Shown here piece by piece: positions 873 through 1,448 of a stretch of 64,000 bases of DNA. Source of the stretch: Shigella phage sb2; sequence record PQ666540. One strand, given 5' to 3'. Both the position numbers and the translations under genes were made by a program. Numbering within the stretch: position 1 is the stretch's first letter; every line of letters starts with the position of its first letter. Under the pieces are notes generated by a model, which saw only the letters and a program-made list of their open reading frames with translations, did not search any database and had not been told where the DNA came from.

Positions 873-1086
873 ATTCTACTTCCTCACCCGTTCCCAAATC
901 ATATTCAACTAAACGAATAGGTTCATGAATGCCATATCCTTGAACAGAAATTTCTGTCGTAGGATAAATTCCATCAATATCACCCATGGTCCACGCTTCA
1001 TTAAATTGCTGTTCGCCTGAATTACTAAACCATTCTGCGAAAGCATTTAACACATCTTTAGAACCTTCAATAATTATCTTTGCCAT
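865..1086 (-). CDS. hypothetical early protein (73 aa)
   Basis: ORF track; end overlaps start of the neighbouring ORF. Confidence 0.45.
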   Translation of the reverse strand: MAKIIIEGSKDVLNAFAEWFSNSGEQQFNEAWTMGDIDGIYPTTEISVQGYGIHEPIRLVEYDLGTGEEVEYD

Positions 1087-1448
1087 TACAGACTCTCAGT
1101 AAAGGTACGAGCGATAACGTCGCGCTGCTGTTCCGGAGTCAGAGAGTTAAAGCGAACTGCATAACCTGATACACGGATGGTCAGCTGCGGATATTTTTCC
1201 GGATGCTTAACTGCATCTTCCAGAGTTTCACGACGCAGAACGTTAACGTTCAGGTGTTGACCACCTTCAATTTTAACTGTAGGCTGTGATTCAATTTCAA
1301 TTTCACGGGCGTGCAAACCGTAGAAAATTTCTGGGTCTACAAAAGAGTCCTCTTTAAAGGTTTTAGAAACAATAATTCGTGCTTGAATACCATCTTCAAA
1401 ATAAATAGTACCTTTATGTGTGCCTTCAAGAATTTGATATGCTTTCAT
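1086..1448 (-). CDS. autonomous glycyl-radical cofactor (GrcA/YfiD-like, PFL C-terminal domain homolog)
   Basis: C-terminal motif [29 protein letters not shown] is the glycyl-radical signature (RVSGY) of pyruvate formate-lyase/GrcA. Confidence 0.8.

Follow-up and report, generated by a model that had tools for sequence, protein, structure and literature searches.

The window analyzed here is the whole stretch of 64,000 nucleotides of DNA from Shigella phage sb2 (sequence record PQ666540). Its first 5 kb are 96–98% identical to many Tequatrovirus genomes, and the best match is Shigella phage Sfk20, with a level of identity of 97.7%. The vs.3, vs.4 (with an Acb2 domain), vs.5, vs.6, vs.7, and vs.8 genes follow one another in this region, all on the minus strand. 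The same gene order is found in T4 (62800–64912) and in Ec_MI-02, and the Tevenvirinae position of the vs genes between regB and denV is kept.

The vs.6 gene is the ORF at 1086..1448 on the minus strand (the stop codon is counted in), which starts with ATG and ends with TAA according to the ORF list of the window. Its product is 120 aa in length, has a mass of 13.8 kDa, and contains no cysteines. The initial annotation had placed here a 120-aa ORF with a C-terminal glycyl-radical motif of the pyruvate formate-lyase (PFL) type, without stating the strand. Both the ORF and the quoted 29-residue peptide were found, the latter being residues 88–116 of the product. A Shine–Dalgarno sequence GAGG (1453..1456, minus strand), read from the sequence, is located 4 nt upstream of the ATG and overlaps the TGA of vs.7; in turn, the TAA of vs.6 and the start codon of the following gene overlap (TAATG). 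Sigma-70-like promoter matches occur at the level of chance (15 found versus 15.7 expected), as do MotA-box-like matches (15 found versus 15.1 expected), none of which lies within positions 1–4000. An ORF on the opposite strand inside the vs.6 coding sequence (1311..1469, 52 aa, GTG start) was discounted, as it probably arose by chance on an AT-rich strand.

Two parts can be distinguished in the vs.6 gene. The head comprises codons 1–59 (1272..1448, minus strand); it is phage-specific and AT-rich, with a GC3 of 0.20, as follows from a BLASTP comparison with GrcA, the DNA alignment, and the GC3 values. The tail, delimited by blastn and by alignment with Escherichia coli grcA, is 185 nt in length (1086..1270, minus strand), comprises codons 60–120 and the stop codon, and has a host-like GC3 of 0.40. 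[quoted passage not shown] The RVSGY sequence is in register with both GrcA and PFL, and Gly95 is aligned with G102 of GrcA and G734 of PFL.

Several features of the neighboring genes can be noted. The Vs.4 homolog (606..872, minus strand), encoded two genes downstream of vs.6, contains the Acb2/Tad1 hairpin domain PF24729 (E = 2.7e-19), which is that of the anti-CBASS cyclic-nucleotide sponge family. The mechanically predicted vs.7 and vs.8 ORFs are located at 1455..1835 (minus strand, 126 aa) and 1781..2368 (minus strand, 195 aa), whereas the corresponding Ec_MI-02 coding sequences are shorter (1455..1784 and 1781..2320). The longer reading of vs.7 overlaps vs.8 by 55 nt; therefore, the true starts are probably internal ATG codons. 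A 157-aa internal virion protein (2474..2947, minus strand; phrog_3155; DUF7412, E = 5e-95) is encoded between vs.8 and denV. The denV gene itself (endonuclease V, a pyrimidine-dimer glycosylase; 2957..3385, minus strand) has an in-frame TGA at codon 107 (3053..3055), whereas Ec_MI-02, which is 96.8% identical, has TGC (Cys) at this codon and an intact gene of 138 aa. The truncation removes the C-terminal 32 residues of the enzyme, including the WYKYY segment. An "endonuclease (x2)" is annotated in several relatives, and the denV split may be common to a sublineage. In the window, denV directly abuts the lysozyme gene e, whereas the T4 order is denV–ipII–ipIII–e; thus, neither the content nor the location of the internal-protein cassette is the same as in T4. 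Ten tRNA genes (Arg, Asn, Tyr, Met(CAT), Thr, Ser, Pro, Gly, Leu, and Gln) form a cluster at 9542..10373 on the minus strand. T4 has eight tRNA genes, and those for Asn and Tyr appear to be extra relative to it.

The T4 counterpart of the ORF is vs.6 (NC_000866, 63557..63919), located between vs.7 and vs.5 in the regB–denV region and annotated as "autonomous glycyl radical cofactor GrcA". Its product Vs.6 (NP_049730) is also 120 aa in length, occupies the same place, and is identical to the protein of the window at 118 of 120 residues. The two differences, S54 in the window versus P54 in T4 and R73 versus H73, are both outside the radical loop. Arginine 73 is also present in E. coli GrcA, and H73 is therefore a change particular to T4. 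We take the T4 protein Y06I to be Vs.6, which fits its size (13.8 kDa) and its uniqueness. A single matching place was present in every phage record among the tblastn matches listed; T4 was not among these. In total, the tblastn search revealed the gene in 1,588 phage records of several families, in 1,539 of them near full length, including T5-like phages, T4-like phages of Klebsiella, Enterobacter, and Aeromonas, and a jumbo Yersinia phage. According to Nolan et al. (2006), vs.6 is among the few ORFs kept in all six T4-like genomes compared. The statement of the initial annotation that genes of this kind occur in T-even phages is thus correct. Given the homologs in about 1,590 phage records and the published work on T4 Y06I, the finding is already known, and the gene, the well-known version of the bacterial spare part GrcA/YfiD carried by T4-type phages, is in itself nothing unusual. 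The initial annotation had likewise called it functionally interesting rather than novel.

The domain searches place the protein in the GrcA/YfiD family, as had been proposed. The search against the glycine-radical domain recommended in the initial annotation gave a match to Pfam PF01228 (Gly_radical) over residues 60–101, with E = 2.4e-18 and a score of 67.1 bits versus a cut-off of 22.2. A phmmer comparison with E. coli GrcA (6owr_A, structure 6OWR) gave E = 9.1e-42, and residues 60–120 are 100% identical to GrcA residues 67–127. The C-terminal residues 697–759 of E. coli PFL (1h16/2pfl) match with E = 4.7e-26 and 50 of 63 residues identical (79%). The phage profile phrog_1209 is matched over its full length (residues 1–120 versus profile positions 1–121 of 121, E = 7.3e-63). 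Like the members of the family, the protein is a stand-alone polypeptide of about 14 kDa, encoded by a separate ORF with its own ribosome-binding site and lacking a catalytic barrel and a Cys–Cys pair, and its C-terminal glycine-radical domain contains the RVxG[FY] fingerprint.

The best NCBIfam match is the GrcA equivalog TIGR04365 (IPR011140; E = 1.4e-45), but only model positions 25–126 are covered, and the score of 154.7 bits is below the trusted cut-off of 170 because the N-terminal half is divergent. The head alone gave no match when scanned against NCBIfam. In view of this shortfall, the protein is best filed as a member of a phage Vs.6 subfamily of GrcA-like proteins, and not as a bacterial GrcA equivalog. 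It has neither the ten-stranded barrel nor the thiyl-radical cysteine of the catalytic glycyl-radical enzymes (PFL, TdcE, and NrdD). The PFL-type model TIGR01255 is matched only at positions 680–744 of 744, with 89 bits versus a cut-off of 994. The absence of cysteines and the size of 13.8 kDa therefore indicate a radical-carrying module only, and not an enzyme. The comparison with PflB leads to the same conclusion: the phage protein shares with its C-terminal domain (residues 693–759; 2PFL/1H16) the identity over 697–759 given above, with the RVSGYAV radical loop included, but has no counterpart of the 690-residue catalytic barrel or of the Cys418/Cys419 pair and therefore is no enzyme on its own.

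In the work of Andorfer et al. (2021; PMC8683613), T4 Y06I (~14 kDa) and E. coli YfiD (that is, GrcA) are described as the only two experimentally validated PFL spare parts. Wagner et al. (2001; BBRC 285:456), as cited there, found that the PFL-activating enzyme puts a glycyl radical on Y06I and YfiD, and that the activated proteins form complexes with oxygen-cleaved PFL and restore its activity in vitro. [quoted passage not shown] The phage protein is similar to E. coli GrcA/YfiD (P68066; NMR structure 6OWR) in being small, stand-alone, and free of catalytic cysteines, and its residues 60–120 match most of the structured domain of GrcA, including the radical glycine. It differs in being seven residues shorter and in having an N-terminal half encoded by AT-rich DNA without similarity to the host gene. 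The regulation is also different, with the phage copy expressed from a phage gene array and the host grcA promoter regulated by FNR and pH.

Taken together, these data make it very probable that the ORF is the Tequatrovirus ortholog of T4 vs.6 (taken as Y06I) and encodes a stand-alone glycyl-radical domain that serves as a spare part for host PFL. The proposed sequence of events is as follows. In microaerobic cells, oxygen attacks the radical on Gly734 of PFL, the chain is cut at this place, and the enzyme is dead, as published. The phage protein would then bind the cleaved PFL, and its C-terminal 61 residues would take the place of the beta-strand, glycine loop, and C-terminal helix that were lost; the identity of these residues was observed here, and the structural replacement has been published for YfiD. 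Host PflA, a radical SAM enzyme, would install the radical on Gly95, and PFL activity would return, as reported for Y06I in vitro (PMC8683613). As residues 60–120 are identical to GrcA, the part that would enter the PFL active site and be recognized by PflA is the host's own. Over 39 residues, the N-terminal half has no more than 33% identity with GrcA, and docking may therefore differ from that of YfiD. With host expression shut off by T4, the cell could make no fresh GrcA of its own, and the phage copy would supply it and keep the output of acetyl-CoA, ATP, and formate going in a gut with fluctuating oxygen. In addition, T4 encodes a class III (anaerobic) ribonucleotide reductase, and enzymes of this class use formate as the reductant. 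Thus, vs.6 fits the textbook-level picture of a phage auxiliary metabolic gene that provides T4-type phages with their own PFL repair part, presumably for fermentation and formate supply after host shut-off. The statement of the initial annotation that the phage sustains anaerobic host metabolism during infection extends the in vitro work to the living cell; the searchable literature yielded no in vivo phenotype for vs.6 mutants.

The same domain could in principle repair another glycyl-radical enzyme, either the phage NrdD, which is also cleaved by oxygen at its glycine, or the host TdcE (2-ketobutyrate formate-lyase). TdcE is a close paralog of PFL, and cross-rescue is plausible. A role of vs.6 in phage nucleotide metabolism was suggested by Nolan et al. 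(2006), the Gly_radical domain being present in NrdD as well, and PMC8683613 contains the speculation that GrcA-like proteins might repair other glycyl-radical enzymes. However, the tail is completely identical to GrcA and matches the PFL C-terminus at the level given above, whereas no NrdD chain was found among the 33 PDB matches at E <= 1e-3 and no NrdD model among the NCBIfam matches. Moreover, the activity of Y06I reported in PMC8683613 is the rescue of PFL. Repair of NrdD or TdcE is therefore considered improbable.

Another explanation follows from the contrast between the two halves of the protein. The N-terminal half, which governs the efficiency of binding and activation in YfiD, has strongly diverged from that of the host, whereas the domain contacting PFL and PFL-AE is kept identical. 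A protein of this kind might act as a competitor or decoy, whose host-identical domain occupies PFL-AE or cleaved PFL, host fermentation being redirected or dampened through the divergent N-terminal half. Loss of G95 would be expected in a decoy; in the phage protein, however, the loop is preserved in full together with its radical glycine, and Y06I is reported to restore cleaved PFL (PMC8683613). This possibility appears very slight, and the reading of vs.6 as a spare part for PFL is preferred.

A distinctive feature of the gene is its mosaic structure at the DNA level, no description of which was found in the searchable literature. The GC content jumps inside the gene from 0.26–0.30 at the 5′ end to 0.46–0.49 at the 3′ end. 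In a blastn search against 5,426 complete E. coli genomes, only nucleotides 179–363 of the gene were matched, and this was the case in every genome, with a best identity of 98.9%. The alignment with E. coli grcA switches sharply at codon 59/60 from near-random DNA identity to 183 of 185 identical positions, and the similarity stops at the stop codon. A segment of 175 nt (1096..1270 of the window) matches E. coli grcA exactly, and the mismatches in the tail are restricted to tail positions 1, 177, and 180, i.e., to both junctions. The switch corresponds to GrcA residue 66/67, which is only a few residues from the border between the disordered and structured parts at 60/61.

The head, for its part, is still a distant GrcA homolog. 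BLASTP comparison with GrcA residues 1–66 gave 33% identity over 39 aa (E = 3e-5), and the N-terminal IQI motif is common to GrcA and to the homologs of fHe-Yen9-04 and JSE, with YQI at this place in the protein of the window.

The origin of the tail can be deduced from the divergence at synonymous sites. The tail dS to E. coli is 0.045, versus 0.044 for E. coli compared with another Escherichia species; for comparison, the corresponding values are 0.39 with Citrobacter and 0.98 with Salmonella. The tail and head of E. coli grcA itself diverge in parallel (tail/head dS of 0.39/0.50 for Citrobacter and 0.98/0.91 for Salmonella). In addition, the GC3 of the phage tail (0.40) is close to that of the E. 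coli grcA head (0.39), whereas that of the phage head (0.20) is like that of the phage. The parallel divergence and the host-like GC3 of the tail indicate that the direction of transfer was from host to phage, and transfer from phage to host was ruled out on the same grounds. The gene matched a median of three places per E. coli genome in the blastn search; the extra matches are presumably pflB and tdcE. Neither of these is the donor of the tail, as the best E. coli match was grcA in every genome. The most economical history is that of an old phage grcA homolog whose 3′ half, encoding the structured domain, was later overwritten by host grcA via gene conversion.

The presence of 185 nt nearly identical to the E. 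coli chromosome, with a host-like GC content, might also be explained by functionless passenger host DNA or by an assembly artefact. However, the tract is fused in frame to the phage-specific head, and the E. coli grcA tail is matched at 95–99% identity by 632 independent phage records at the same locus, including the T4 reference. In T4, the same head/tail mosaic is observed, and 181 of the 186 positions of the tail are identical to E. coli grcA; in a Mosigvirus, 177 of 186 positions are identical. Intact copies of the gene are also present in about 1,540 phage records from several families, with a very low dN, the tail dN between phages of different genera being at most 0.007. A passenger or artefact can thus hardly be taken seriously.

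The host-like tail of the vs.6 gene is not confined to one phage genus. Between Tequatrovirus and Mosigvirus, dS is 0.51 for the head and 0.14 for the tail; the lower value of the tail indicates that the tails are younger than the split of these two genera. Some variable sites of the Tequatrovirus tails are also polymorphic among Escherichia-type alleles, and the sites at the 3′ junction differ between phages.

A different donor can be recognized in Klebsiella phages. Their tails are only 86–88% identical to that of E. coli and carry the LLDAVEH allele, which is also found in Klebsiella, Raoultella, and Salmonella, whereas E. coli has LEDAVKH. In a genome that we take to be Klebsiella phage KPV15 (IMGVR_UViG_2974754850_000001), a tract of about 160 nt has almost the same sequence as a chromosomal grcA of metagenomic origin (L093), the donor being called Klebsiella-type on the basis of 98% protein identity to the GrcA of "Klebsiella sp." in GTDB. 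The 5′ junction of this tract is the same as in the E. coli-type tract, and the 3′ junction is located about 25 nt before the stop codon. The L093-type tail is matched at 95–99% by 106 phage records, and almost all phages among the matches listed are Klebsiella phages. Within Jiaodavirus, the heads of KPV15 and KP179 are 97–98% identical, whereas the tails are about 92% identical.

The GrcA-like genes of other phages (Klebsiella Jiaodavirus and Slopekvirus, Karamvirus CC31, Krischvirus JSE, T5-like Tequintavirus, the jumbo phage fHe-Yen9-04, and Aeromonas Biquartavirus) share the same architecture, with an invariant core starting from EGGQH and protein identities of 52–83%. Most of their tails have drifted or ameliorated to phage composition; in Klebsiella phages of the KPV15 kind, the place of the E. 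coli-type tract is taken by the Klebsiella-type one. Drifted or fully ameliorated tails are present in Krischvirus JSE, Karamvirus CC31, T5-like phages, and fHe-Yen9-04 (tail GC3 of 0.11), and JSE, which infects E. coli, has a tail identical to that of E. coli at only 128 of 186 positions. The grcA tails of Salmonella, Enterobacter, and Yersinia had no match of at least 95% in phage records. The absence of such matches, together with the drifted tail of JSE, indicates that the matching to the host is lineage-specific and not universal. One candidate was discarded: a 19 kb "viral" contig (L199, IMGVR_UViG_2706794630_000006) with a 91% Yersinia-like tail contains a complete bacterial grcA with bacterial flanks and is therefore at least partly chromosomal (prophage-adjacent).

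These sequence comparisons support at least two putative independent gene conversions from host to phage, and possibly more, with short tracts (186 nt). As for the mosaic itself, the searchable literature contained no account of the Klebsiella parallel, and both are a modest side result. We consider it rather probable that the radical-bearing half evolves in concert with host grcA and has been overwritten at least twice (from Escherichia to Tequatrovirus/Mosigvirus and from Klebsiella to Jiaodavirus), with the 5′ junction pinned at the domain border, so that the spare part would fit exactly the PFL and PFL-activase of the current host while the phage keeps its own docking half. The pattern may be caused either by an adaptive fit to host PFL/PflA or merely by the location of the homology that permits recombination. 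Concerted evolution, if true, would represent one of the few documented instances of repeated gene conversion from a bacterial chromosome into a virulent phage that degrades host DNA. The mosaic would distinguish the half that needs an exact match to the host, i.e., the domain inserted into PFL and recognized by PFL-AE, from the half that is free to diverge, and it provides a natural chimera with which the contribution of the N-terminal half of GrcA can be studied. It also serves as a clean, datable marker of the flow of host-chromosome DNA into T4-like phages of the virulent type, and possibly as one of recent association with a host.

Two observations concern the vs.6 locus of these relatives. 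In the genome taken as KPV15 (L196, locus ~601..959), the T-run in the vs.6 head is one base shorter than in KP179 (TTTTAT versus TTTTTAT), and the frame is broken. This can be explained either by a sequencing error or by recent pseudogenization, in a phage with a freshly host-like tail. In Jiaodavirus KP179 (L003) and Karamvirus CC31 (L004), the gene immediately downstream of vs.6 is the vs.4/Acb2-like one, and vs.5 is absent from this place; the annotation of CC31 has a small vs.5 on the upstream side of vs.6. The same arrangement of vs.6 and the vs.4/Acb2-like gene in Slopekvirus 05F (L005) is suggested by the size of the downstream ORF. Thus, the local gene order in KP179, CC31, and 05F is rearranged around a constant vs.6.
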